From Pirellulales bacterium (GTDB taxonomy: Bacteria; Planctomycetota; Planctomycetia; Pirellulales; Lacipirellulaceae), in contig JBGSMO010000487.1 of NCBI GenBank assembly GCA_041740115.1, positions 7,953-71,952 of the forward strand: 64,000 bases of DNA. The letters are read 5' to 3'. Position numbers and translations under genes: made by a program. Shown here piece after piece: positions 14,898 through 27,905 of this stretch; positions within the stretch are counted from its first letter, which is position 1; each line of letters begins with the position of its first letter. The notes under the pieces were generated by a model. It saw nothing but the letters and a program-made list of their open reading frames with translations. It ran no database searches and was not told the origin of the DNA.

Positions 14898-15049
14898 TTA
14901 GCCGTTGGCGGGTGTGCGGGCGAGGACCAGCACGGTGACGTCGGCGGCGCCGGCGCGGCGCAGGACGCGGGCGGCTTCGCTGCAGGTAGCGCCGGTCGTC
15001 AGAATATCATCGACGATCAGCACCCGGGCGGCCGCTAAATGATAGGACG
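14898..15049 (-). pseudogene. comF: comF 3' fragment (PRTase core), separated from its 5' part by the integrated element
   Basis: Manual translation SYHLAAARVLIVDDILTTGATCSEAARVLRRAGAADVTVLVLARTPANG*. VLIVDDILTTGAT is the PRPP-binding loop. An in-frame TAG lies 3 codons upstream inside the element, so the fragment has no start codon. Confidence 0.95.
15035..15049. repeat. Left attachment core (15-bp direct repeat)
   Basis: CTAAATGATAGGACG, identical to 27275-27289. Confidence 0.96.
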
Positions 15050-15093
15050 GGGAACGCTAAACGGTAGTGACTTTTGGAGGTTTTGGACCGGAC

Positions 15094-15112
15094 GCAACGC
15101 GCAAAGCAACGC
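15094..15112 (+). repeat. Putative integrase arm-type site (left)
   Basis: GCAACGCGCAAAGCAACGC, identical to 27138-27156; 45 bp inside the left core. Confidence 0.8.
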
Positions 15113-15251
15113 GCGCCGATTATCCGGCCGGTTTTGCTAAGATACGACACTGCTGGGCTCGGGGACTAATTACCCCCACAGGCCCCGGCCGTCAGCGGAC
15201 CACACCCCGCGGCGGCCGGGACCGGCTCGGCTCTTTGAAAGGTGTGGAAGC

Positions 15252-15875
15252 ATGGACGAATGGCAACCCCCGAAGTTGGGCGCAACGCTCCGAATGCTCG
15301 TCAAAATGCGAGTTCTCTGCCACCGGGAGTTTGATGCGCCGCCATACGCTGGATGCAGCATTTCCGAAGCAGAGTATGAGGCCGCCGGCAGTGACGGCTC
15401 AACCGAGGTCGGCTACGTCTCTTGGCGGACTCGCTGCGAGCGATACTATCGGATTCCGCGAGGGAAGTTCGATGACTTTGAGCGGTTGAGTTCGACGTTG
15501 TGGGGCATTAACAATGCGATATTGTCCATCAAGGCCGCCAAGTTATTGATTCAGCTTGGAGAGCCCGTAAGCGTCATCGCGACAGAGTGCGAGAGCATAG
15601 CGACTTCATGCTTCGTTGTTGGGTCGCAACTACGCCGGTACGCAGACGTTTCAACTCACCGCGAAAAGTCGACGCCCGTTCGCGTGTCGCAATTCGCAGA
15701 CATAGCGGTGGCCTCGAAAGCACGTGATGAAATCAAGCGGCAATTAAGATCGCGGTTGCCCTGGACTGCAGCAACGGACCGCGCCGCGACGACGCTTCGG
15801 AGCCATGGTATCCAAACAACTGGAAAAACCCTTAGGAACAACTTCGCCGACTTGAGGCCCGAAAAGGCGAAGTGA
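15252..15875 (+). CDS. Hypothetical protein (element)
   Basis: 207-aa ORF with no recognised motif; first gene of the element. Confidence 0.65.
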   Translation: MDEWQPPKLGATLRMLVKMRVLCHREFDAPPYAGCSISEAEYEAAGSDGSTEVGYVSWRTRCERYYRIPRGKFDDFERLSSTLWGINNAILSIKAAKLLIQLGEPVSVIATECESIATSCFVVGSQLRRYADVSTHREKSTPVRVSQFADIAVASKARDEIKRQLRSRLPWTAATDRAATTLRSHGIQTTGKTLRNNFADLRPEKAK

Positions 15876-16010
15876 AACGCGGAAACAACCCCGTAGCTTC
15901 CGAAAACTTGGCGGGAAATTACCCCGTCATTTCCGGGAATCATTGGTGACGCCCCTATCGTGATTGCAGTGCCGCACACAGCGGCAAGCACACGACAAAG
16001 GGAGCGACCA

Positions 16011-16214
16011 ATGGTAGCCGCAGCAAACTCACAGCAGCCTCTGCAAGTCAGCGAGCGTGAAGCCGCTCGCATTCTCGGCGTCTCACCGAAGACGCTCTTC
16101 AATCGTCGCCAAGCCGGCAAGATCGGCTTTGTTCGCGACGACGGCCGGATTCTCTACCGGCTCGACGAACTGCAGCGCTATTCCAAGGCCCGGGAAGTCC
16201 CGGCCGTTCTCTAA
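16011..16214 (+). CDS. Excisionase/AlpA-like winged-helix DNA-binding protein
   Basis: LQVSEREAARILGVSPKTLFNRRQAGKIGFVRDDGRILYRLDELQRY fits the Xis/MerR-like HTH pattern; SD AAAGGGAG before ATG 16011. Confidence 0.85.
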   Translation: MVAAANSQQPLQVSEREAARILGVSPKTLFNRRQAGKIGFVRDDGRILYRLDELQRYSKAREVPAVL

Positions 16215-16308
16215 CCCCCACCACCGCCTGGCTGTCCGCGCATTAAAACGCCCGGACGCACCGAGGGCTCAATTTCGGTGGCCGGGCAAAATCGAAAGGA
16301 CTATCCCC

Positions 16309-16554
16309 ATGATAGGGACCATTCAGCTGCAAACCAAGGCTTGCATGGTTTGCTTTCGTGCTGACTCCGTCGCCGGCAAAACTGTCAGCGGCAAGCAGGC
16401 TTGCTCTCAGTGTTGGAGGAACGACAGAGCTGCTGCAAAGCGTCGCGGCAAGATGCGGCCGGGCGTTTGTGCGACGGTCAACGCTTCACTGCCTTCGGTG
16501 AAGCATGTCGCCTCTCTCCCCGGTCAACTCGGCCTCTTCGGGGAGGGCGAGTAA
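16309..16554 (+). CDS. Small CxxC-CxxC (possible zinc-binding) protein
   Basis: SD GAAAGGA before ATG 16309; CMVC...CSQC; stop overlaps the next start (TAATG). Confidence 0.65.
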   Translation: MIGTIQLQTKACMVCFRADSVAGKTVSGKQACSQCWRNDRAAAKRRGKMRPGVCATVNASLPSVKHVASLPGQLGLFGEGE

Positions 16555-16934
16555 TGCAACACCAACCGCCCCCTGCCGTCCCAGTAATGCTCACCGGCCT
16601 ACTCCACGAGAACGGCCAACTCTTCACCGTGTTCGCCGCCGGCGACTCAGAGCGGATCATCGAAGCCGAGCTCTACGACATTCTGCCATTCGATAACTTC
16701 CGTCAGCACGTCCACGAGCGACTCGACTTGCGAGTCGTCTACCGACGCGGCCGTTGGTTCGCCGACGTGATTGAAGCCGCTGAGCGTGGCGGAATCGCAA
16801 TCGAGGTGGACGACCTCACCCGTTGCATCTGGTTGAACGATCGCCAGTTGAGTTACGCCGAAGCTGGATACGCTGCCGAGATTATGCTTTCGCCGGTTGT
16901 CCGTCTAGCCGGCAAGCTGGGGGTGGCCGGATGA
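16554..16934 (+). CDS. Hypothetical protein (element)
   Basis: 126 aa; translationally coupled on both sides (TAATG and ATGA overlaps). Confidence 0.7.
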   Translation: MQHQPPPAVPVMLTGLLHENGQLFTVFAAGDSERIIEAELYDILPFDNFRQHVHERLDLRVVYRRGRWFADVIEAAERGGIAIEVDDLTRCIWLNDRQLSYAEAGYAAEIMLSPVVRLAGKLGVAG

Positions 16935-18688
16935 TTGCAGCCCCGCATGGAATCGCGATTCTCGACGCCCTGGAAGGCGTGAAGTCGAACGGCCAAGACT
17001 CGTGGATGGCTCAATGCCCTTGCCACGAAGATTCAACCGCCTCGCTATCGATCACCCGCGAAGGCGACAAGACGCTCGTTTACTGCCATGCCGGTTGCGA
17101 CACTCGCGACGTGGTCGCCGCTTCTGGTTTGACGATGGCAGACCTGGGGCCGCGTAACGCCAACGGTTCAGCTCCGCACGTCGATAAGGTTTACGACTAC
17201 CGCGACGCTGACGGCTCGCTGATATCTCAAGTCGTGAAGATGCTGCCGAAGGATTTCCGCCAACGTCGGGCGGACGGCACGCCGAGCGTTAAGGGCTGCA
17301 AGGTCGTACCGTACCGGCTCCCTGAAATCGTCCGGGCTGATCCCGCGGCGCCCGTGTTCGTCGTCGAAGGCGAAAAGGATTGCGACAACCTGGCGAAGCT
17401 CGGCATCATCGCAACGTGCAACGCCGGCGGCGCTGGGAAGTGGCGGGCGGTTCACGCTGAGCACCTGAAGGGCCGGCACGTCGTCGTGCTTCCCGACAAC
17501 GATGATCCTGGCCGCAAGCACGCCGAGCAAGTTGCTGCGACGCTCGCGGGCATCGCCCGCAGCGTGAAGACGGTCGAGCTCCCCGGCTTGCCCGAAAAGG
17601 GGGACGTTTCGGATTGGCTCGCTGCAGGTGGGACCGCGGCGAAGCTACTGGAGTTGGCTGCGGAATCGTCCGACGAAGCTGCGGCGTTCCCTAAGTTCAC
17701 GCTCGGCGAACTGACTGAGAAGTTCCGCACGCTCAGCCCACCGGTGATTCACGGTTTCATCCGCGAGGGTGAGACTGCCAACTTCATAGCGAATCCGAAG
17801 ACCGGCAAGTCGTGGACGATGTACGGCTTGGCCATCAACGTCGTCACTGGGTCGGATTGGCTGGGATTGTTCCCAGTCTCTCAAGGTCGCGTGCTGCTGA
17901 TCGACAACGAACTTCACCCCGAGACGCTTGCTCACCGCATCCCGGCTGTTGGCAATGCTCTAGCTAGGCCGTTCGAGGACTATCGCGACGGCATCGACAC
18001 ATGGTGCCTTCGCGGCAATCTTCGCAGCCTGCAACAGTTGCTTGTCGAGTTCCGCAAGTCGGTCGAGCCGCGTCAGTACAAGCTGATCATCTTCGACGCC
18101 AAATATCGCTTCGCGGCCGAAGGCACGAGCGAGAACGACAACGCGGCGGAGACGGCTGTTTACAACCTACTCGACCAGATCGCGGCAGAGACGCGATCAG
18201 CCCTGATCGTCGTTCATCACGCGAGTAAGGGCGGCCAATCTGACAAACGCGTTACCGACGTTGGCGCGGGAGCCGGTGCTCAGAGCCGGGCGGCTGATTG
18301 CCACATGGTGCTGCGCGAGCATGAGGACGAGGGTATCGCCGTGCTCGACGCTGCGGTGCGATCGTTCCCGCCGGTGGCGCCAGTGGCTTTGCGTTGGTCA
18401 TTCCCGATCTGGATTCCCGACGAGTTCGCGGACGCTGCCAAGCTCAAGGGCAAGCAAACCCGCAATGAGGAACGGACGGCGGAGCGAGACAAAGAGGGCA
18501 TCGACAAGATCATCGCCGTGCTGATCACCGGGCCCGCGACAGCCAGCGTCATTAGGCAGGGGACCGGAATCAGCAAAGACCGGTGCGACCGCCTACTTAA
18601 CAAGCTCACTGCCGACGACCAGATCCGCGTGGAGATGGTGAAGGTGAAGGGCAATGAATGCCGCGAATACCACGTTGTCGATGGTTGA
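16931..18688 (+). CDS. Primase-helicase (Zn finger + TOPRIM + RepA/AAA_25-type helicase)
   Basis: CPCHED...CHAGC zinc site; VFVVEGEKD and VVVLPDNDDPG TOPRIM motifs; Walker A ANPKTGKS; Walker B LIIFD; C-terminal wHTH-like segment. Confidence 0.92.
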   Translation: MIAAPHGIAILDALEGVKSNGQDSWMAQCPCHEDSTASLSITREGDKTLVYCHAGCDTRDVVAASGLTMADLGPRNANGSAPHVDKVYDYRDADGSLISQVVKMLPKDFRQRRADGTPSVKGCKVVPYRLPEIVRADPAAPVFVVEGEKDCDNLAKLGIIATCNAGGAGKWRAVHAEHLKGRHVVVLPDNDDPGRKHAEQVAATLAGIARSVKTVELPGLPEKGDVSDWLAAGGTAAKLLELAAESSDEAAAFPKFTLGELTEKFRTLSPPVIHGFIREGETANFIANPKTGKSWTMYGLAINVVTGSDWLGLFPVSQGRVLLIDNELHPETLAHRIPAVGNALARPFEDYRDGIDTWCLRGNLRSLQQLLVEFRKSVEPRQYKLIIFDAKYRFAAEGTSENDNAAETAVYNLLDQIAAETRSALIVVHHASKGGQSDKRVTDVGAGAGAQSRAADCHMVLREHEDEGIAVLDAAVRSFPPVAPVALRWSFPIWIPDEFADAAKLKGKQTRNEERTAERDKEGIDKIIAVLITGPATASVIRQGTGISKDRCDRLLNKLTADDQIRVEMVKVKGNECREYHVVDG

Positions 18689-18830
18689 CCGACAACGTAC
18701 CCGACTACCCGACAACGGGCTGACGGGTGGGGTGGTGGCTCCCTAAAGGGGGAGCCGACAACCCTACCACGTCAGCCTACAGGAACGACAACGATGAATT
18801 CAACAATCGACAACGTACCCGACCGACAAC
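18674..18830. promoter_or_regulatory. Putative replication origin (iterons + hairpin)
   Basis: CGACAAC at 18690, 18710, 18756, 18786, 18808 and 18824, inverted at 18674; the 16-mer CGACAACGTACCCGAC twice; GGCTCCC/GGGAGCC hairpin at 18737-18756. Confidence 0.6.
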
Positions 18831-19009
18831 GCCAGACCACCATCATCTTCGACCAAACAGTCGCCGACCGCATCGAAAGCTTGCTGGCTCGCGTCGAAGG
18901 CGTCCGCCGCGGCGCCACGATCGACCGGCCAACCCGATTCAACCGCGAAGGCGAGCGCCACGCCCGTCGCGTAGCCCAAGCCGACCAATCCCGCGGGACT
19001 TCCCGCTAA
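18794..19009 (+). CDS. Hypothetical protein (element)
   Basis: 71-aa ORF with SD AGGA; its 5' end overlaps the iterons. Confidence 0.5.
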   Translation: MNSTIDNVPDRQRQTTIIFDQTVADRIESLLARVEGVRRGATIDRPTRFNREGERHARRVAQADQSRGTSR

Positions 19010-19034
19010 CCCCGTTTCCTGAAAGGAAAAACCG

Positions 19035-19475
19035 ATGGTAGTTTCCAACCACCCCGACCTCCGCGCCGCCATGTACGCCGCCCACATGGGCACTGGCGGA
19101 ACTCGCGACGAACTGCTCGCCCTAGCTCGACGTCACGGCCAGACGCCGGAGATCTTCGACGCCGACTACGCCGAGATGGGGCGCCGGATTGCGTTGCACA
19201 ACGCCTATTGGTCGTCGCCCGAAGGTTTGGCCATCCGCGACGCTCGGCAGAAGCTCGCTGAAGCCGCTCAGGCCGTCGACGCCGCTGTCGCAGAGTTCGC
19301 GAGCGACGCCCGGGTCGATCACCTGCGGAAGCTGCAGGCCGACGCCACGGCGGAAGTGAACAAGCTGCAGAATGCCAACAGCGAGCAGTTCCAAGCGTTC
19401 TCCAAGGCGATGAAGGCCACGGCCCACCCGGGCGACGCCAACTATCTCGACCCGGCCAACGTGCTCATTCACTAA
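19035..19475 (+). CDS. Hypothetical helical protein (element)
   Basis: 146 aa; strong SD GAAAGGAAA; phage-like codon style. Confidence 0.75.
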   Translation: MVVSNHPDLRAAMYAAHMGTGGTRDELLALARRHGQTPEIFDADYAEMGRRIALHNAYWSSPEGLAIRDARQKLAEAAQAVDAAVAEFASDARVDHLRKLQADATAEVNKLQNANSEQFQAFSKAMKATAHPGDANYLDPANVLIH

Positions 19476-19494
19476 TTCGATGAAAGGAAACACA

Positions 19495-20100
19495 ATGCAA
19501 ATCGTAAAAACCCCGCCGCTCCCGGCGCCCAAGGTTATCCAGCGGCCGTCAGACCGGATCTCAGCCGCCGACCGAGAAGAGATCTACGGCATCATCTGCC
19601 CGGCCGTCGAAGCCGGTAAGCCGCTCACGAAGTCGGAAACGGCCCGCGTCAACGCGATCGTCTCCGGCAAGCCCGTCGGCGTCTTCGTGGCGGAGGCTCA
19701 TCGGTTCGCCCGTGCCGTCGCCGCTGGCGAGGACGTCGCAAACTCGTCGCCCGATCTGCTCCGACTGCTGCAGGATGGACCGGCCGCCGCCCTGATGAAC
19801 GCCGCGACCGCCCGCAAGGCTCTGGCCGACGCGTTCGAGAAGACCGGCTACTTCAAGCGGGTGGCTGAGTTGAAAGAAGCGTGCCGGACTGCACTCGAAG
19901 CCTTCCAGGTCGCCGAGGCGGATGAAGATACCAGCATGCGGAAGATTCGGCGGCTTCAATTGGAGCACGAGCAATCGATTCAGCGGCTCAGTGACTTCTC
20001 GAACACCGCGAACGCCGAATTCACGCTGTTCCGCCGCGAGATGAAGAAGACCGCCGATCTCTCCAAGAACGAACTGCTCTGGCAGAACTTCCTGATTTAA
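19495..20100 (+). CDS. Hypothetical coiled-coil protein (element)
   Basis: 201 aa from ATG 19495 after TGAAAGGAAACAC. Confidence 0.75.
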   Translation: MQIVKTPPLPAPKVIQRPSDRISAADREEIYGIICPAVEAGKPLTKSETARVNAIVSGKPVGVFVAEAHRFARAVAAGEDVANSSPDLLRLLQDGPAAALMNAATARKALADAFEKTGYFKRVAELKEACRTALEAFQVAEADEDTSMRKIRRLQLEHEQSIQRLSDFSNTANAEFTLFRREMKKTADLSKNELLWQNFLI

Positions 20101-20109
20101 GGAGCGACC

Positions 20110-20448
20110 GTGGCAGCCTACGTTCTCAACCCGAAGCATCCCAATTATCGATTTGTACGCACGGTGACGATCGCCGGCCGTCAACCTCGCATCGTCATTT
20201 TCAAAGATGGCGCCGAGGTGGAACTCGACCCAAAGGAGGTGCGATTCCTCGCGGAAGAGATTGCCGCCAATTGGATCGGACTGGCCGGAGTCAAGTTTCC
20301 CAAACCGGAGAAGCCCATTCCCGCGCGGCTGGACCCATCCGAACTGGAAGACCGAGACCCTGAGACGTTTGAATTTGTTCGACCTGAAGACCGACCCCGT
20401 TGGTGGCAAGAGCGGCGTGCAATTTTCCGCGCCGTCAACGGTCGCTGA
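20110..20448 (+). CDS. Hypothetical protein (element)
   Basis: 112 aa; SD TAAGGAG before GTG. Confidence 0.7.
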   Translation: MAAYVLNPKHPNYRFVRTVTIAGRQPRIVIFKDGAEVELDPKEVRFLAEEIAANWIGLAGVKFPKPEKPIPARLDPSELEDRDPETFEFVRPEDRPRWWQERRAIFRAVNGR

Positions 20449-20474
20449 CCCTTTTACCCCTGAAGGAGTTTCCC

Positions 20475-20891
20475 ATGTCCCACTTTGACGATTTCGATGA
20501 CGACGACGACGACTACGAGATCGAGGCTAGTTCCAACCTTCGCCAATTTAGCAGCGGCACCTTGGCAGGCCGACTGGTCGAGAAGATCACGGCACTTCAG
20601 CAGGAGCAGCCGCTTACCCGTGCATTTACAACCCGACCAAGTCACAGGGCTATGCAAACCCAAACCCCTAAGCGGAGCGCCGAGCATCCGATCGTCACGA
20701 AGTATAAGGCCAATCACGGCAGCTATGCCGTCGCAGGCGTCACGCTGTGCGAATTCGCGTTGGACCACTTCGTCAATGACGACGACGCCGGAGAGCCCAG
20801 CGCCGCCCTGATCGCTGAGATTGAAGCTGAGAGCGCAGTTCTTCAGGCGGCTTGGATGAACGGTGAGATCACCAACCCATTTGATGCGTAA
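20475..20891 (+). CDS. Hypothetical acidic protein (element)
   Basis: 138 aa from ATG 20475 after GAAGGAG; begins with a poly-Asp tract (MSHFDDFDDDDDDY). Confidence 0.7.
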   Translation: MSHFDDFDDDDDDYEIEASSNLRQFSSGTLAGRLVEKITALQQEQPLTRAFTTRPSHRAMQTQTPKRSAEHPIVTKYKANHGSYAVAGVTLCEFALDHFVNDDDAGEPSAALIAEIEAESAVLQAAWMNGEITNPFDA

Positions 20892-21088
20892 GCGAGAGCC
20901 GGGCGACAAGCGGGGCCTTAATCCTGAATTTGCACCCCGTGGCCGAGTCGATCGTTGCGGTTCTCTTGACCGCAGCGTGTGTAACAAAGCCCGTCGCCTG
21001 TCCAGTCGGCTACCAGTCGCCCCCTTCGTTCCTTGTGTGGAAGCGGGGCGGCTGGGGCTGATTGATGGCAAAGGCCACCCCGCCGGTG

Positions 21089-21124
21089 GGGTCCTTCCGG
21101 CCTTCGTCAGACCACCCTCGGGTG
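21089..21124 (+). promoter_or_regulatory. Putative cos-like packaging site
   Basis: GGGTCCTTCCGG (21089-21100; lambda cosQ is GGGTCCT, followed by TTCCGG), then the 12-bp dyad CACCC-TC-GGGTG (21113-21124), about 75-100 bp upstream of the Nu1-like gene. Confidence 0.45.
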
Positions 21125-21196
21125 AAGCATCGAACGCCTTTTACACGTCAGGAGTTGAGAGTTGACCCCTAATAATAGCACCCTGGAGGCCCGCAA

Positions 21197-21685
21197 ATGG
21201 CCGCTGTAGCCCTCGAACCCCAGACTCTGAGCAAACACATCTGCGCCGATCTCCGCGATATGGGGCATTGGACGCGCGCCGTGCCGGAGATGTTCCGGGG
21301 CCTGATCGCGATGCATCGGGAAGGCGGCGAAACCGTCGTGAAGACGCTACCGGAAGTTGCCGCCGCGTTCAACATGGCTCCGCAGTCAGTCAAAGGCGAC
21401 TGGCGTGATGGCGGCATGCCTGGCCGTCCTGGGCGCTGGGATCTCGCCGAGATTTTGTGTTGGCGAATCGAGCGTGACGGGCGTGCTCGCGGGGCGACGG
21501 TCGATACGACGCCCGTTGAATCGCTGGTCGACAAGGCTTTGGAGCTACTCAGCGAGCAATACGGAATCACGCACGTCATCGCCGGCGGCGAGCGTCTCGC
21601 CCAAGCATGGGCCGACACGTTGGCCGAGGCGGAAGCGGGAGAGAAGAAACGGGCCCCTAGTGCTCGGAAGCGAATCACCAACTAG
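21197..21685 (+). CDS. Terminase small subunit (lambda Nu1-like) DNA-binding protein
   Basis: PEVAAAFNMAPQSVKGDWRDGGMP...WDLAEILCWRIERD aligns by eye with Nu1 KQLADIFGASIRTIQNWQEQGMP...YDSAAVIKWYAERD. Confidence 0.65.
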   Translation: MAAVALEPQTLSKHICADLRDMGHWTRAVPEMFRGLIAMHREGGETVVKTLPEVAAAFNMAPQSVKGDWRDGGMPGRPGRWDLAEILCWRIERDGRARGATVDTTPVESLVDKALELLSEQYGITHVIAGGERLAQAWADTLAEAEAGEKKRAPSARKRITN

Positions 21686-21710
21686 CCCGACGGGCTGAAA
21701 GGAAACACGA

Positions 21711-23267
21711 ATGAGCGCGAAGTTTGAAATCGGCGGTTCAGCCAGCGGCGCCGTCAAGGCGGTTGAGGAACTCAACAAAGCGTTGAACAAGACCGGCAAA
21801 GAAGCCGAGGGCGCGATCACGCCGACTAAGAAGGTGCAAGAGGCCGCGGCCCGATTGGCCCAACAAGCCGATCCGCAAGAGAAGTACAACGAACGGATGC
21901 GAAAGCTGGTCGAAGCAGTCAAGGGCGGGGGCCTGGAAATCTCCAAGGCGGAAGTGTTGGCCAAACGCTACGGCACGGCGCTTGATAAAGCCGGCGACTC
22001 CGGCGACAACGCGTTCGGTTCCGGGATGCTCGGCAAGATCATGGCGATGGGCGGCGGCATCACGGCGACGCTCGGTCCGCTCGCCCTGATGAAAAAAGGG
22101 TTCGACGATATCTCCGACTCGATCGAGAAAGCCAAGAACGCCAGCGCGGAAGCTCGCCGCGGCATGGGCTCACTTCGACAGTTGGCCAACTCCGACGCCG
22201 AGTTCCAGGGATTGAAGAGTAAGGCGGAAGCTTTGTTCGCCAATGGCTCAGTGCAGACGCTCGACCAGGGAGCGCAAGCCGTCTTCTCGTTGGCGTCTGC
22301 CGGTCAGCTCGACGACAAGAGTTTCAGCATGTTCGCGGGCCTGGCTCAAAAGGGCGTCGTCGATCCGGGGATGTTAGCCAAAGCAGTTCGCCAGTACCAA
22401 TCGGGGTTCGGCGCCGCCGAGACGGGCGGGGCTGGGCAGATCATCTCCAAGGCGTTCGCGGCGTCGGCCTACTCACCGGCGTCGGTCGAAGGGTTGCTCG
22501 GCGCCAGCCCGCAGATGGCGGCAGCCGCGTCGTCGTTGGGGATCAGCGACGAAGAATCGCTCGCGTCGCTGGCGGTGTTGTCGTCGAGCGTCGGGGAGAA
22601 CGTCGCGGCGACTCAGATTCGTGCGTTCCTTAGTTCGACGGCGAACATGGAGGGGACCGAGGGCATGAGCATTGCCGAGCGCGTGAAGATGGTCGCCGGC
22701 AAGAACCTGGATTACGCCAGCCTGAAGAAAACTCTGGGGACCGATGAAGCGACGACGGGCTTCGGCCTGCTGTCCAAGAATATGCAGGAGATTCAACGGG
22801 CGAATCTGGATATTCAAAAGGCGAATTCAGACACAGGCGCGGTAAGTCGTCGCCTGGGTTTCACCGACGCCGAGTCCGATGCAGCCCTGTCGTCGATGAT
22901 GATCGAGAACCAAGGCATTCTCCAAGACCGTCGCGTGGCGGCTTATGAGGAGTTGCGCGACGGCATCTTCGAACGGCAGCGGCAAGGGTTCCGCGAAAGC
23001 GCCAAGAACGGACTCCCGCAGCGATTGAACGCGTCGTTCGACCTGGGGCTAAGCCATACCCAAGAGTTCCTCAACGGCTACCTGATGAGTCCCGAGACGT
23101 TCGTCAACGTCAACGAGTCAGCGGTCGGCAGCGGCGGGATGAGCGACCAGCAACAGGCCGTTCTCGAATCGCTGAATCGTTCGGCAAAGGCGGCTGAGCA
23201 GACGGCGGAAGAGATCAAGCGGCTCTCCGGTCAAAACCGCAGCAAGGTCACGACGAGGCAAGAATGA
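21711..23267 (+). CDS. Phage tail tape-measure-like protein (518 aa)
   Basis: Ala/Gly/Ser-rich helical protein with the TMP-type core ASSLGISDEESLASLAVLSS...AATQIRAFL, an N-terminal PQEKYNERMRKL segment and a C-terminal coiled coil. Confidence 0.72.
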   Translation: MSAKFEIGGSASGAVKAVEELNKALNKTGKEAEGAITPTKKVQEAAARLAQQADPQEKYNERMRKLVEAVKGGGLEISKAEVLAKRYGTALDKAGDSGDNAFGSGMLGKIMAMGGGITATLGPLALMKKGFDDISDSIEKAKNASAEARRGMGSLRQLANSDAEFQGLKSKAEALFANGSVQTLDQGAQAVFSLASAGQLDDKSFSMFAGLAQKGVVDPGMLAKAVRQYQSGFGAAETGGAGQIISKAFAASAYSPASVEGLLGASPQMAAAASSLGISDEESLASLAVLSSSVGENVAATQIRAFLSSTANMEGTEGMSIAERVKMVAGKNLDYASLKKTLGTDEATTGFGLLSKNMQEIQRANLDIQKANSDTGAVSRRLGFTDAESDAALSSMMIENQGILQDRRVAAYEELRDGIFERQRQGFRESAKNGLPQRLNASFDLGLSHTQEFLNGYLMSPETFVNVNESAVGSGGMSDQQQAVLESLNRSAKAAEQTAEEIKRLSGQNRSKVTTRQE

Positions 23268-23584
23268 GCACCATCAGCGCCGACGCACGCTATGCCGAAC
23301 TGCTCACGCACGTCGACTTTCCCGACTGGTGGATTTTCGTCGTCGGCGCCACGCACGTCATCGAACGATGGCACGGCGTCAGCCTGCCGGTAACGACCGT
23401 CGGGCTGATCGAAGTAAAGAAGCAAGGCGTCGACTTCAAGGAACCGAAGTGGGCGTTGCTGCTCTGGGAACTTGGCGCGGAGGCGGACTTCATTGAGAGG
23501 CTACAGCGTGCAACCGCCGAACTGGGAACCGACCGAAGCGGAGATAGCGGCACAGTGTGCGGAGATCCGCCGCGGGTGGAGTGA
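23264..23584 (+). CDS. Hypothetical protein (element)
   Basis: 106 aa; ATGA overlap with the tape-measure-like gene. Confidence 0.55.
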   Translation: MSTISADARYAELLTHVDFPDWWIFVVGATHVIERWHGVSLPVTTVGLIEVKKQGVDFKEPKWALLLWELGAEADFIERLQRATAELGTDRSGDSGTVCGDPPRVE

Positions 23585-23672
23585 GGCGGAGCTGCGGCGG
23601 CGCTCGGCGTGGATGGTCTGCGAGCCGGTGACGGCGCCGGTGGCCGAAGAATCGCTCTTTGATAACTCGTGA
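23508..23672 (+). CDS. Small protein with a PTEAEIAAQCAEIRRGW motif
   Basis: GTG at 23508 with SD GAGAGG; 54 aa; overlaps the end of the previous ORF in another frame. Confidence 0.5.
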   Translation: MQPPNWEPTEAEIAAQCAEIRRGWSEAELRRRSAWMVCEPVTAPVAEESLFDNS

Positions 23673-23786
23673 AGATAAAACCGCCTCCGCACGCGCCGCG
23701 TCGTGCGTTGCGAGGGGCGGGCGTGACCATCGAGCCGCGTTTCGCTGCGATGCGTGAGGCGGGCGCTGAGGGGCTGAGAAGCGAGA

Positions 23787-23816
23787 TTGACAAAACGGGC
23801 GGCTGCGGAGCAAAAT
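23787..23816 (+). promoter_or_regulatory. Sigma-70-like promoter
   Basis: TTGACA-N18-CAAAAT upstream of the 24051/24443 gene pair. Confidence 0.5.
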
Positions 23817-23832
23817 AGCGGCGTCAAAGCAC

Positions 23833-23862
23833 GAACCTTCGGAAGTTAATTTCCGAAGGTTC
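23833..23862. repeat. Perfect 12-6-12 inverted repeat (operator or lox/dif-like recombination site)
   Basis: GAACCTTCGGAA-GTTAAT-TTCCGAAGGTTC. Confidence 0.85.
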
Positions 23863-24050
23863 AATCGCGGGCCTGAGAATCCGCGATACACGCAGTGAGT
23901 TATGTCGAATGGTGAGAAACAAGAACGATCGGCAGAGAGGGTGCGCAGGAAGGCAACGACCTGCGGGCGGTCTCACCCGCCTGACAGCGCCACCTCTGCC
24001 GGTCGTTTTTCTTAGCCCGTGCCGTTCTGGCCGGGCGGAAGGATTCTCCC

Positions 24051-24446
24051 ATGGCCCTCGCACTCTACGCGGGCGACGACCTAGAAGTCTGTCACGACAC
24101 GCGGACTTGGCTGCGGCAAGGTAAATCAGCCATCGAAGGCGGCTATCTAATCGAAGGCGCCGCGTTGCTCCAAAGAGCGGTTCGCGAGTTCCTGCAAGCC
24201 GACTGCGACTACTGGGGCGTTCCCCGGCATCGCACGCTGATCGGCATGGCGAAGTCACTTTATCGAGCCGAGCAGGTCACGCCCGATTCTTATGCGGTAC
24301 TGTCCGGCATCATCTCGACGTGCAACCGCGTCGTGCGTTGCGAGCCGAGGCGTTGCGAAGATGAAAGCCACTTGAAGGCATGCCTGCTAGCCATGCACTC
24401 ATTCTGCGACGGGACCGCCTATCTCGACGAAAGGAGCCAAGCATGA
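24051..24446 (+). CDS. Hypothetical helical protein, possibly HEPN/DUF4145-like
   Basis: 131 aa; GAALLQRAVREFL...TLIGMAKSLYRAEQVT...VLSGIISTCNRVVRC resembles the HEPN helical layout but lacks Rx4-6H; coupled to the recombinase by an ATGA overlap. Confidence 0.55.
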   Translation: MALALYAGDDLEVCHDTRTWLRQGKSAIEGGYLIEGAALLQRAVREFLQADCDYWGVPRHRTLIGMAKSLYRAEQVTPDSYAVLSGIISTCNRVVRCEPRRCEDESHLKACLLAMHSFCDGTAYLDERSQA

Positions 24447-25639
24447 GCACGACCGACAACAAGGCCGACTGGCCCCTACTCCGCATCGTCAACGAGATCA
24501 TGAAGCCGACCGGGCGATGGAAGCCGGCGGTCATTCGCGGTTATCGAGTTGTAGTACGACGCTACGAACGGTTCCGCGGCGGCGAGCAGACGGCCGGCGA
24601 AGTGACCGTCCGTCTGCTGGAGAAGTTCAAGGAACTGATGATTGCCGAGGGCGTTAAGACAAAGGCCGCGGCGACGAAGGCGAGCTACATCGGAACCATC
24701 GTCCGCCAAGCCGACCCCGATCTGTTGCCGAAGCGCAACCTTGGCGAGTACAGCAAGGCCGAGCAAGGCGACCTGCTCTACATCATGGAAAACGAATACT
24801 TCCCGGCGAAGTCGAAGATTGCGAGCGAGACGACGGAGCGGCAGTACAAGTACACGGCGACCCGTTTCTCGAAATTCTTGGGGCGTCGCGCGACGCTCGC
24901 CGACTTAACGGACCAAAGCCTCGGTAAATGGATGCGACAAATGCGAAAGGATGGTTTAGCGATGCCAACGATCAACGGCTACGTCACGAAGCTACGGGCG
25001 TTTTGGAACTGGTGTGCGAAGAAGCGGATGGTCGAAGAGTTCCCGACGATCGAAGATTTCCCCGAGCCGATGACGATTCCCAAGGCGTATAGCGAGGAAG
25101 AGTTTCGGTCCCTGATCGCCGCTACAAAGCTCATGGAAGGTCACGTGGGCGACGTGCCGGCCGGGCAATGGTGGTATGCGTTGCATCTGGTGGCGTTCGA
25201 CACGGGGGAGCGATGTTCGGCGCTGTTGCATCTTGAGTGGACCCACTACGACGCGGGAGACGCGACGCTCGCCGCTCCGGCTGAGATCCGCAAAGGGGGA
25301 CGCAAGCCGATGCTCTATCGCCTGAAGCCGGCGACCGTCGCCACGTTGGCGACCATGCGAGCGACGGCCAGCGGCAAGAAGATATTCTTCTGGGCGCATG
25401 ACGCAACGACGTTCTACAACCACTACAAAAAGCTGCTGGAGTTGGCGGGGCTGCCCTACGTTCCGCACAAGAGCGGGCTGCAAAAGGTGCGTCGGACGTT
25501 CGCCAGCCATATCGAAGCGGCTGGCGGCAACTCGACGCAGGCCCTTAGTCACACGTCGCGGCGAGTGACCGAGAAGTCGTACATCGATCCAAGAATCGCC
25601 AAGGAACCGCCGCACAACGACGTGCTGTTCGACCTGTAG
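24443..25639 (+). CDS. Tyrosine recombinase 1
   Basis: Catalytic motifs FDTGERCSAL (R), KGGRK, LQKVRRT (Q at the HxxR His position), LSHT...TEKSY (H, Y). Confidence 0.92.
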   Translation: MSTTDNKADWPLLRIVNEIMKPTGRWKPAVIRGYRVVVRRYERFRGGEQTAGEVTVRLLEKFKELMIAEGVKTKAAATKASYIGTIVRQADPDLLPKRNLGEYSKAEQGDLLYIMENEYFPAKSKIASETTERQYKYTATRFSKFLGRRATLADLTDQSLGKWMRQMRKDGLAMPTINGYVTKLRAFWNWCAKKRMVEEFPTIEDFPEPMTIPKAYSEEEFRSLIAATKLMEGHVGDVPAGQWWYALHLVAFDTGERCSALLHLEWTHYDAGDATLAAPAEIRKGGRKPMLYRLKPATVATLATMRATASGKKIFFWAHDATTFYNHYKKLLELAGLPYVPHKSGLQKVRRTFASHIEAAGGNSTQALSHTSRRVTEKSYIDPRIAKEPPHNDVLFDL

Positions 25640-26000
25640 CCCCACCGCCGCGGGCAGGCGGCGGTTTTCAAGAAGATCCGGGCGGGCCAAGTTGCTGAGG
25701 GTCGACACAACAACGCCTTGGCGCCGCCCGGAAGCGACCAATGGAGTATTGTTTTGGCCCTGCGCCGTGCCTGAAAAATCTGGCGCGATTGCGCCACGAT
25801 GCCGGTTGCTTGCCGGTGTGAGCGCGGATTGTATGAAAAGCCGTGACGGCGACCCCGCTGGCTAGCAAATCAGCGAAGGCCGCCGCCACAGACCGTTTGA
25901 TCGTTAATAGGCGGCGAGCCCTGGAACGAGTTCCCCAGAGCCCGCCGCCGACAGGAGCTAACCAGCAACTCTACCACCTTTTTTGAGCATTGGAGAAAAA

Positions 26001-27224
26001 ATGGCATCGTTATCAACTTACCAAGACGGCAAGAAAAAAGGCCGGCATCGCGTCCTGTTCACCGACCCCACCGGCAAGCGGCAGACGATCTACCTTGATC
26101 GCATTCCCAAGAAAACGGCCGAGGGCGTTCAACGCGCCATCACCGAGCTTGAGCGATCGGCCCGCTACGGTCACTCGGCGGCAGACTTCGCGTTGGCATG
26201 GCTATCGACCGCCGGCGATGAGATCCGCGAACGACTGACGAAGTTCGGGCTCGCGTCGGCTCGCATGGTCGAAGCGCCCGAGGCGGTAACTCTCGGCACG
26301 CTGGTCGACCTGTACCAGCTTCGCCCCGAGTGGCAGCAGCTGAAGCCCAAGACGATCAAGAACAAGTTGCGCCACTTCAAGCTGGCCCTGGCGTTCTACG
26401 GCGCCGACAAGCCGGTCGAGTCGATCACCAAGGCCGACGCCAAGGCGTTCTACGCGATGCTGCAGCTTCCCGAGGCCAAGGGAGGGCACGACTTCGCCGT
26501 CGCCACGGCCAACCAGACGGCCTCGACGCTGTTCGCTCTGGTCAGCTTCGCCATCGACGCCGAGCTGGTCGACCGGAACGTGTTCAAGGTTCTGCCGCGG
26601 AAGGCCCGAAAGGGGAACAACGTAAACGTCAGCGAGGCTGTCAGCCTTGCAGTGCTCGATTCGCTGCAGACCACCGAGGACAAGCTGCTGTTCGCCCTGG
26701 GGCGCTGGGGCGGGCTACGGATGCCCTCTGAGGGGACGCAGCTACGCTGGCAGGACGTTGATTGGGAAAGGGAGCGTTTCTACACTCGCAGCCCTAAGAC
26801 CGAGCGCCACGAGGGCAGGGAAGGGCGTTGGGTGCCGATCTACCCGCCGTTGGCGCCGCTGTTCCGCGAGATGTTCGAGAAAGCCGCCGACGGCGCCGTC
26901 TACGTTCTCCCGAACTATTGTCATGCGATCTACTCCAAGCCGACGCAGACGCTCAAACAAGCGATCAAGCACGCGGGCGTCGAGCCATGGCCAAGAGCGT
27001 GGCACAGTTGCCGAGCGACGCGGCAGACGGAACTGGCGGCCGATTTTCCGGCTCATGTCGTCGCGAGTTGGATGGGAAACACCGTCGCGGTCGCCGACGC
27101 TCACTACCTGATGGTGCGTGAACTCGACTTTGCAAAAGCAACGCGCAAAGCAACGCAGCACACGCCCGCAACGACGGATAACGAGAAGAAAACGGCTGGC
27201 GTGAACCCTGCAAATCCTCGATAA
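26001..27224 (+). CDS. Tyrosine recombinase 2, likely the integrase for the comF site
   Basis: N-terminal arm-binding-like region (GRHRVLFTDPTGKRQTIYL); RWGGLRMPSE (R), SPKTE (K), WHSCRAT (HxxR), WMGNT...AHY (Y); ends 50 bp from the right att core. Confidence 0.94.
   Translation: MASLSTYQDGKKKGRHRVLFTDPTGKRQTIYLDRIPKKTAEGVQRAITELERSARYGHSAADFALAWLSTAGDEIRERLTKFGLASARMVEAPEAVTLGTLVDLYQLRPEWQQLKPKTIKNKLRHFKLALAFYGADKPVESITKADAKAFYAMLQLPEAKGGHDFAVATANQTASTLFALVSFAIDAELVDRNVFKVLPRKARKGNNVNVSEAVSLAVLDSLQTTEDKLLFALGRWGGLRMPSEGTQLRWQDVDWERERFYTRSPKTERHEGREGRWVPIYPPLAPLFREMFEKAADGAVYVLPNYCHAIYSKPTQTLKQAIKHAGVEPWPRAWHSCRATRQTELAADFPAHVVASWMGNTVAVADAHYLMVRELDFAKATRKATQHTPATTDNEKKTAGVNPANPR
27138..27156 (+). 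repeat. Putative integrase arm-type site (right), inside the integrase CDS
   Basis: GCAACGCGCAAAGCAACGC, identical to 15094-15112; translated as part of KATRKATQ. Confidence 0.8.
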
Positions 27225-27263
27225 TTGCAGGCTGTTGCAGGTGGTTGCCGTTCTATTCCGGAC

Positions 27264-27905
27264 CTAAAGAGCGTCTAAATGATAGGACGCACCTACAGCC
27301 ATTTCTCCCGCCAAATTGCGAAATCGCGCGGGGCGTGATAACCCGACCTGGGGCGGCACATCCCGCACAAGCCGCAGCATCTCGCCCGCGCAGGGGACGT
27401 TCAGCTTTTCGGCGAGGCGGCGAGCGATCAGTTGCGGTGCATTCGCGCCTCGTTGCCATCGGCGCCACCGGTGCATCGGGACGGCGGTGACGACGTCGAT
27501 CTGTAACTCCAGTAGCTGGTTGCTGAGCCGCTGCCATGCCAGTTCGGCGAGCGCGTGCGTCACGACCCCTTGGCGATCGGCCTTCGTGCGCATCACGAGT
27601 TGCCGTAACAGCCCTTCGTAGCTGCCGAGCGCGATCGCCCGCTGGAAGCGAAGCTTGTCGCCGCGGCAGTGGTTGCAGGCGAGGTCGACGCCATTCGTCG
27701 AGGGGACCGGCGCAGCGCAGCGGGGGCAGACTGGCCAGTCGATGAATTCGAGGCGCTCTTCACACTCTCGGCAGATGGGTGACTCGCGCTGCTCTTCGCC
27801 GAGGTCGCCGTGGCAGGCGATGCATTTGGCGGGGAAGAGGAGATCGAGGCCGGCGCCTACGGCGTGTCGCCACCATCGAGTTCGTTGAGTTGGCGGTGTT
27901 GGCAT
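27264..27905 (-). pseudogene. comF: comF 5' fragment (double zinc ribbon + N-part of PRTase), truncated by the element
   Basis: LDLLFPAKCIAC...CREC...CPRC...CNHC, TAVPMHRWRRWQRGAN and QVGLSRPARFRNL; ends ASYHL+DAL* at the att core and lacks the DD..TTGAT motif found at 14898-15035. Confidence 0.95.
27275..27289. repeat. Right attachment core (15-bp direct repeat)
   Basis: CTAAATGATAGGACG, identical to 15035-15049. Confidence 0.96.

Follow-up and report, generated by a model that had tools for sequence, protein, structure and literature searches.

A comF-integrated element of Lacipirellula that most likely represents a new phage satellite family with a tape-measure gene homologue

A 64-kb stretch of a Lacipirellulaceae contig (JBGSMO010000487.1; G+C ~62%), called the window below and the reference for all positions given here, carries within its comF gene a 12.2-kb element that most likely represents a new family of phage satellites, known here from its genes alone. 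Judging from this gene content, we consider it probable that this is a phage satellite of a Lacipirellula, one that integrates, replicates by itself, and would be packaged in dependence on a helper phage via the small-terminase-like gene g11, with tails measured by the tape-measure protein (TMP) homologue g12. Genes for integration and excision, a replicon of its own, and a gene for packaging specificity, with virion genes otherwise absent, together match the functional definition of a satellite. Because of this gene set and the tape-measure precedent in the phage-inducible chromosomal island (PICI)-like elements (PLEs) of Vibrio cholerae, helper-dependent packaging by g11 and tails measured by g12 are the most likely reading; we infer the helper, the cos site, and induction. 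The original prediction for this DNA, a PICI-like satellite, is partly supported: its architecture makes the element a strong candidate, with helper dependence and PICI membership as predictions.

The ends of the element and the two parts of its target gene, which holds the binding motif for phosphoribosyl pyrophosphate (PRPP), are as follows.

15035-15049: attL core CTAAATGATAGGACG, within the comF codons S-Y-H-L, an exact repeat of 27275-27289
27275-27289: attR core, an exact copy of attL
15094-15112, plus strand: arm repeat GCAACGCGCAAAGCAACGC on the attL side, an exact 19-bp copy of 27138-27156
27138-27156, plus strand: arm repeat GCAACGCGCAAAGCAACGC on the attR side, an exact copy of 15094-15112, inside the 3' end of int2
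14902-15049, minus strand: 3' end of comF, ~47 codons cut off from the rest of the gene, carrying the PRPP-binding motif VLIVDDILTTGAT
27264-27905, minus strand: truncated 5' part of comF (213 codons) with a double zinc ribbon (DZR_2, 6.4e-12)

From the exact repeats at 15035-15049 and 27275-27289 it follows that the element is 12,240 bp long, and the boundaries (15035-27289) and size (12.24 kb) originally predicted proved exact. The 15-bp direct repeat CTAAATGATAGGACG is present in only two copies in the window, even when up to 3 mismatches are allowed. The 3' codons of comF with the PRPP-binding loop VLIVDDILTTGAT sit outside attL, and the 5' fragment terminates as DAL* just inside the element at attR and lacks the phosphoribosyltransferase domain. 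When the flanks are joined in silico, a 255-aa ComF with both DZR_2 and Pribosyltran domains is obtained, and Lacipirellula limnantheis I41 carries an intact, syntenic comF with 84% identity across all 255 residues, which confirms comF as the target that had been proposed. Judging from these alignments, the L. limnantheis gene is the empty attB site, the insertion is one by site-specific recombination at the 15-bp core of comF, and the gene would be made whole again by precise excision. The DUF502 protein encoded nearby shares 92% identity with its counterpart in the metagenome-assembled genome (MAG) "Pirellula sp. PB1.3.31" and 91% with the one in L. limnantheis I41. This identifies the host as a Lacipirellula (Planctomycetota, Pirellulales), so that the planctomycete host first suggested is borne out and can be placed in a genus.

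The copies of GCAACGCGCAAAGCAACGC flank the core on both sides in attP orientation, and we regard them as candidate arm-type binding sites of the integrase. At the same locus the PB1.3.31 MAG has the comF 3' fragment only, with the same core, ~125 bp of near-identical arm, and GCAACGCGCAAAGCAACGC at an unchanged distance from the core. A second element at the same core indicates that elements with common attachment machinery have targeted comF repeatedly. The window holds no tRNA genes, so the element is not a tRNA-targeting island, and an Rfam scan of the element returned no RNA families.

All genes of the element are on the plus strand, and codon-position GC supports g02-g09, g11-g14, int1, and int2. 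Those that carry the argument are listed here together with the two non-coding regions next to them (HTH, helix-turn-helix).

15960-16214, plus strand: g02, HTH_17, an Xis/AlpA-class MerR-like winged HTH (PF12728, E 9.9e-8)
16928-18688, plus strand: g04, primase-helicase with CHC2 zinc ribbon, Toprim, and RecA-like AAA_25 domains (from Pfam and PHROGs)
18673-18831: iteron cluster, six copies of CGACAACG, one of them inverted, directly 3' of or at the end of g04
18794-19009, plus strand: g05, 71 aa, after the helicase, with a good coding signature
20892-21196: non-coding region of 305 bp, 5' of g11, a candidate packaging (cos/pac) site and/or late promoter
21197-21685, plus strand: g11, Nu1/Rpp-type small-terminase-like winged HTH protein (from profile searches)
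21711-23267, plus strand: g12, TMP homologue, 518 aa (from PF10145 in its homologues and synteny)
23264-23584, plus strand: g13, TMP partner, 106 aa, whose start overlaps the TMP stop
25983-27224, plus strand: int2, tyrosine integrase adjoining attR, likely ATG at 26001 (Phage_integrase, 5.6e-7)

The Xis-like HTH gene, primase-helicase, iterons, Nu1-like gene, tape-measure-like gene, and two recombinases were thus recovered in the order first described. Pfam, PHROGs, and NCBIfam gave no match in the element for capsid, portal, large terminase (TerL), tail-tube, or lysis genes, in agreement with the original prediction, and when PADLOC was added, usable matches among the unknown open reading frames (ORFs) were confined to g02, g04, g11 (weak), and the recombinases. 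A capsid, portal, or TerL gene hidden among these ORFs, which the prediction had named as the finding that would speak against it, was not found; the largest unassigned ORF is of 207 aa (g01), so that a portal, large terminase, or HK97-type capsid gene would not fit.

In the replication module, g04 scored 8e-29 with AAA_25, 2.4e-4 with Toprim_2, 3.7e-3 with Zn_ribbon_DnaG, and 4.6e-37 with phrog_239 ("DNA primase/helicase"), and has more than 300 relatives in genomes. The window has 16 occurrences of the iteron CGACAACG where 5.2 would be expected, and six of these are clustered in 160 bp; by its layout the cluster is a putative replication origin beside its initiator. Two related elements with other primase types (L082 and L093) have iteron clusters of their own at the equivalent position, and behind these a g05 homologue (60% identity in L082). 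Toprim-AAA_25, DnaB-like, and PrimPol-AAA_25 replication modules are swapped among the relatives. The ORF 18727-19041 originally drawn in the iteron region is replaced by g05 as the real ORF; codon-position GC rejects it as a gene, as it does ORF 20863-21165. Upstream, g02 is 62% identical to its PB1.3.31 counterpart and 34-39% identical to genes 5' of primase-helicases in other planctomycete islands; it did not match the Pfam Phage_AlpA model, and its likeness to AlpA is at the level of the HTH class. Orthologues of int2 (31-36% identity) end minimal HTH-primase-integrase islands in other planctomycetes, and int2 is probably the integrase of the comF site.

The assignment of g11 came from its family. 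Alone, g11 matched phrog_57 weakly (E 0.008). A profile built from five close homologues and searched against a library of 1.8 billion proteins retrieved 294 proteins, and among the 145 distant homologues scanned, 128 matched phrog_57 and 57 matched phrog_141, both small terminase families, with 5 matching Pfam Phage_Nu1. Against the PDB, the family profile matched the PICI protein RppC (6HLK, 4.2e-6) and its partner, the small terminase (TerS) 6HN7_B (2.3e-7), as well as lambda Nu1 (1J9I, 1.6e-5) and 7LW0. The AlphaFold2 model (pLDDT 83) has a winged HTH followed by long helices. We therefore accept g11, on profile grounds, as a Nu1/Rpp-type small-terminase-like protein, and the Nu1-like gene of the original prediction has profile support. 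Within the 305-bp non-coding region immediately upstream, the motifs GCGGCTGGGGCTGAT, GCCGGTsGGGTCCTT, and CCCTAATAATArCACC are also found 5' of the g11 homologues in L086 and L162. Because these motifs are kept although the g11-family proteins that share them are only 32-53% identical, a cis-acting site in 20892-21196 is likely. Of the cos-like site that had been predicted here, the conserved non-coding stretch was found; cos function itself cannot be read from the letters, and the region is a candidate.

No match to g12 was obtained in a direct Pfam search, and its assignment as a TMP homologue comes from two groups of related proteins. Those of the first group are 515-518 aa long and 52-65% identical to g12; the small element L086/L087 contains the 52%-identical member, and the closest homologue (65%, locus L083) has an ambiguous context in which the upstream neighbour resembles the gene 5' of TMP in phage clusters. 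Those of the second group are 506-611 aa long and 35-44% identical, a range that includes P0006 of the small element L082. Several of them pass the PF10145 gathering score across the region aligned with g12, and most of those with known context occupy the TMP position in lambda-like head-tail clusters of Posidoniimonas corsicana, metagenomic contigs, and IMG/VR viral contigs, with the order gpW-like gene, Phage_portal_2, Peptidase_S49, major head protein (phrog_1005), other genes, TMP, and tail-tip genes. The tape-measure-like gene of the original prediction is thus backed by its homologues. The TMP length is kept at 515-518 aa, close to the 537-548 aa of phage TMPs. In the window, g12 has no tail-gene neighbours. 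When the TMP alignment was searched as a profile against the PDB, all matches were spurious ones to pentatricopeptide repeats, and five collection scans with the TMP, TerS, and g13 alignments returned nothing; a second metagenome scan returned two short loci only, and a viral-collection scan with a wider TMP alignment returned five phage loci. The partner g13 has 10 homologues (mean column identity 64%) and directly follows TMP in L082 and L159; its AlphaFold2 model shows four helices (pLDDT 72) and found no fold match by Foldseek in PDB or BFVD.

A tape measure had been thought an unusual feature for a satellite, but there are precedents. The mechanism has been tested in PLEs, which swap the TMP, chaperone, and hub of phage ICP1 for their own and so produce chimeric tails (PMC12987554), putative tmp genes occur in PLE-like elements and some capsid-forming PICIs (cfPICIs; PMC12987554, Extended Data Fig. 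10), and EPIP satellites of Mycolicibacterium also encode TMP (PMC12822802).

As a separate observation, the clusters with the closest phage TMPs (L081 1437-20181 and L084 965-18674) open with a gpW-like gene right after a host gene and show no small or large terminase or replication genes in view; L084 ends in an integrase. Either these clusters are prophage-like or gene transfer agent-like elements that do without a terminase, or their terminase may be located elsewhere.

The relatives bear on whether the gene set was left by a deletion. In L086/L087 the order is TerS-like gene, 81-aa gene, TMP, and 141-aa gene, and in the P0017 contig it is TerS-like gene, 259-aa gene, TMP, and 88-aa gene. 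L082 and L159 instead carry helicase, small ORF, a 660-aa protease-capsid fusion (phrog_4523, 1e-41; Phage_capsid_4), TMP, and g13, and L082 also has an integrase. The 10.9-kb contig L093, which may be a complete or circular element, carries a g11 homologue (53%), a tyrosine integrase, ParB_N, a PrimPol-AAA_25 helicase with iterons, and the small ORF after the helicase; TMP is absent. Proteins are 31-69% identical across these elements, with ORFs intact and of similar lengths. The comF element of PB1.3.31 (L094 1-7790 and L158 1-2849; PNKX01000011) consists of a 312-aa ORF, HTH_17, a DnaB-like helicase, a winged HTH gene, a g14 homologue, and then a 455-aa tyrosine recombinase; the 10.6 kb in view contain neither TerS nor TMP. 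Since TerS and TMP are juxtaposed in independent, diverged elements, a mosaic family with swappable modules is indicated rather than a single deletion, and by these comparisons the replication, packaging, and structural modules are exchangeable within it. That the element might be a deletion remnant, an eventuality the original prediction had raised against itself, is not borne out: the diverged relatives keep the small architecture.

We propose the following life cycle. During growth of a lambda-like siphovirus of the portal_2/S49-protease type, the element would excise, by the action of int2 (which adjoins attR and the arm repeats) with the HTH protein, and would replicate from its own origin. 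The TerS-like g11 would steer the large terminase of the helper to the packaging site of the element 5' of g11, and the g12 TMP with g13 would enter tails otherwise made by the helper, as PLEs do with ICP1. The particles would deliver the element to new cells, where it would re-enter comF. In its integrated state the element would inactivate ComF and probably block natural transformation.

A wider reading, which we offer tentatively and hold to be possible rather than likely, is that Pirellulales host an as yet undescribed mosaic superfamily of satellites that hijack both tails and heads, each keeping a different minimal subset of virion genes (TerS alone; TerS, TMP, and g13; or capsid-protease, TMP, and g13). 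In such a superfamily, the TMP-g13 pair would replace the helper tape measure to give chimeric tails, g13 would be a new kind of chaperone or an inhibitor of the helper TMP, and insertion into comF would stop transformation and so guard the element against recombinational curing.

Only one public run contains the element: a biofilm metagenome of 2024, available as assembled contigs, whose study took samples from hot springs as well. Two long contigs (14989-19148 and 19162-27663) cover nearly the whole element with zero differences inside it at a depth of ~19. The contig that crosses attR runs into a comF flank ~9% different from the window (27327-27621), which belongs to the dominant strain, and the left flank is present as two variants with depths of 16 and 4. 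Excision or amplification was considered on account of the ~5-fold depth of the element over the flanks of the window strain and was rejected, because the second strain variant, with a depth of 16, explains the excess: there are two strain backgrounds. An identical element beside diverged flanks hints at recent horizontal transfer; alternatively, the window contig may be a chimeric assembly.

Several observations weigh against the satellite reading. At ~19, the depth of the element nearly equals that of the two host variants together (16 + 4), which gives no sign of extra copies, and the run has no contig with an attP or attB junction, although assembled contigs cannot reveal rare forms. No helper phage is visible, the 64-kb window having no head or tail genes, and Nu1-type TerS is found in none of the head-tail relatives in view. 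A tail assembly chaperone (TAC) was not recognised in the element; relatives carry a 259-aa gene at that place. Both g11 and g12 are themselves below Pfam thresholds and were assigned transitively, and neither matched any of 50,697 isolated phage genomes by tblastn. In Foldseek, the g11 model found nothing significant in PDB and gave weak winged HTH matches to BldC, Xis, and MerR, and going by this model a purely regulatory or Xis-like role of g11 may be considered.

The first of three alternatives is an integrative and replicative island that never enters particles and so is no transmissible satellite; its TerS- and TMP-like proteins would be decoys that poison the terminase or tail assembly of infecting phages as an abortive or interference defence. 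There are just two virion- or packaging-related genes and no helper was seen, tail assembly is a known target of interfering islands (PMC11364771; Rta of PLE11), and minimal HTH-primase-integrase islands of planctomycetes do without any packaging genes. Yet PADLOC gave no meaningful defence match, the TMP length is kept near that of phage TMPs, which speaks for a functional ruler, and a conserved non-coding stretch lies 5' of TerS, the usual place of a packaging site. Defence by decoys also leaves the full protease-capsid gene of the relatives unexplained, and known interfering satellites get packaged as well. We therefore regard such an island as quite unlikely.

Less probable again is a composite of two elements, in which a minimal HTH/primase-helicase/int2 island captured g06-g13 and g14-int1, so that the two recombinases and the phage genes would be uncoordinated baggage of its history. 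At least 10 planctomycete loci have only the bare core of HTH, primase-helicase, and int2 orthologue (~5 kb) with no packaging genes, g14-int1 is a separable pair (PB1.3.31 has such a pair in its comF element, and the sample contains a second, diverged one), and replication modules interchange among relatives. However, a search of the element for an internal att remnant, as expected of a tandem double insertion, found none, the genes run on one strand throughout with intact ORFs and coding signatures, and such mosaicism is normal in satellites and compatible with a satellite life cycle.

A decayed prophage, from which a large deletion removed whatever lay between TerS and TMP as well as all that followed, could be imagined, since lambda-like phages hold TerS and TMP in one late operon that a single deletion could join (the g11-g12 spacing here is 25 bp), but we judge it very improbable: strongly diverged elements of independent origin show the same juxtaposition with intact genes, replication of the plasmid or satellite kind is encoded in the element itself, with iterons, the att sites are perfect, the element is identical across the two long contigs of the run as against ~9% divergence of the comF flank between strains, and tblastn with the proteins of phage relatives found no pseudogene fragments of head or tail genes in the window.

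The remaining genes of the element are as follows.

15252-15875, plus strand: g01, hypothetical protein of 207 aa, with a weak codon-position GC signature
16554-16934, plus strand: g03, hypothetical protein of ~126 aa, overlapping the primase-helicase start, with a good coding signature
19035-19475, plus strand: g06, 146 aa, a weak paralogue of g07 with no significant family match
19480-20100, plus strand: g07, 206 aa, 28% identical to the syntenic L086 gene, with no family match
20110-20448, plus strand: g08, 112 aa, 53% identical to the syntenic L086 gene
20475-20891, plus strand: g09, acidic, ~138 aa, 37% C-terminal identity to the syntenic L086 gene
24051-24446, plus strand: g14, 131 aa, paired with the first recombinase; its homologue precedes the 455-aa tyrosine recombinase in PB1.3.31
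24380-25639, plus strand: int1, divergent tyrosine recombinase, start likely near 24440

g01 had no family match in Pfam, PHROGs, NCBIfam, or PADLOC, and family scans with g03 were likewise without a match. Between g02 and g03, at 16309-16554, an ORF of 81 aa may be present; it has two CxxC pairs, as in a zinc ribbon, and an ambiguous coding signature. g06 and g07 are related over their C-terminal 67 aa (BLASTP, E 3e-4). g09 starts with the strongly acidic run DDFDDDDDDYE, for which a DNA-mimic or anti-restriction role is possible. int1 scored 7.5e-11 with Phage_int_SAM_5 and 3.4e-3 with Phage_integrase. A 1,992-bp contig of the source run (depth 22.5) matches short pieces of 24048-25650, which indicates a diverged second copy of g14-int1 in the community.

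The gap after g13 has features of its own. Positions 23705-23780 hold a repeat of ~65-75 bp that is found on at least 3 other contigs of the source metagenome, with a summed depth of 55-75 against 19 for the element, and is a short dispersed repeat. The sole sigma-70-like promoter match in the element (TTGACA-18-CAAAAT) is at 23787-23816, and a near-perfect 30-bp palindrome, possibly an operator, lies at 23833-23862 between this promoter match and g14-int1. In addition, the exact 19-bp direct repeat CCGCGTCGTGCGTTGCGAG is found at 23696-23714, in this gap, and at 24326-24344, inside g14.

No phage satellites of Planctomycetota are described in the literature searched, which holds few phage-host systems of any kind for this phylum. 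If the satellite reading is true, this family extends satellite biology to the Planctomycetes-Verrucomicrobia-Chlamydiae (PVC) group and tests how general the manipulation of tails by a satellite's own tape measure is, in a system whose lineage, recombinase type, and likely helper are unrelated to those of PLEs. The compact modular family, with its combinations of TerS, TMP-g13, and capsid-protease, would be useful for defining minimal gene sets for virion parasitism, and at least two different comF-targeting elements add to the case for mobile elements that disable competence genes. The cultured L. limnantheis I41, with its empty comF site, is a possible experimental recipient.

Among known systems, the Gram-negative PICIs of the EcCICFT073 type share with the element a size of ~12 kb, site-specific integration with direct repeats, an integrase, an AlpA/Xis-class HTH protein, a primase-helicase with an iteron origin, a putative packaging-redirection gene of the Nu1/Rpp fold, and the lack of capsid, portal, TerL, and lysis genes. 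In contrast to PICIs, the element has its integrase at the 3' end, reading toward attR, and two tyrosine recombinases; it disrupts the interior of a protein-coding gene, its host belongs to Planctomycetota, and it carries a tail structural gene (TMP), at variance with the PICI rule of no structural gene. Its proteins have no demonstrated PICI orthologue, g04 being a functional equivalent of Pri-Rep.

The PLEs of V. cholerae (PMC12987554) likewise combine a replication module of their own with a tape-measure gene and lack tail tube, sheath, and fibres. PLEs, however, use a large serine recombinase and RepA_N, whereas the element has tyrosine recombinases and Toprim/AAA_25; PLEs exploit a lytic myovirus helper and carry TAC and a baseplate hub, whereas the helper here is likely a lambda-like siphovirus and TAC and hub were not recognised. 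There is no sequence similarity between the two.

P4 is ~11.6 kb in size. P4-like satellites are thus comparable in size to the element; both have an integrase of the tyrosine type and a primase-helicase fusion, and both are likely to follow a lambda/P2-style packaging logic of the cos type. P4 differs in its alpha-type helicase, as against the RecA-like AAA_25 of the element, and in having no TerS-like or TMP gene, and Pfam and PHROGs gave no homologues of Psu, Sid, or Delta in the element. cfPICIs have their own capsid, protease, portal, and connector, all of which the element lacks; the relatives L082 and L159 do have the protease-major-capsid fusion beside TMP. An autonomous tailed prophage needs capsid, portal, large terminase, tail, and lysis genes, for which the element gave no matches. 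The Listeria comK prophage (PMC7397523) reminds us of the insertion described here in that it enters a competence gene at an exact core repeat and excision restores the frame, but the target here is comF and not comK, the element is not a complete phage, and its reversible excision is a prediction. Membership in the PICIs, PLEs, P4-like satellites, or cfPICIs is unsupported by orthology in our protein comparisons; by analogy of its parts, the element would come closest in its workings to a PICI of Gram-negative bacteria that has a tail module like that of PLEs.

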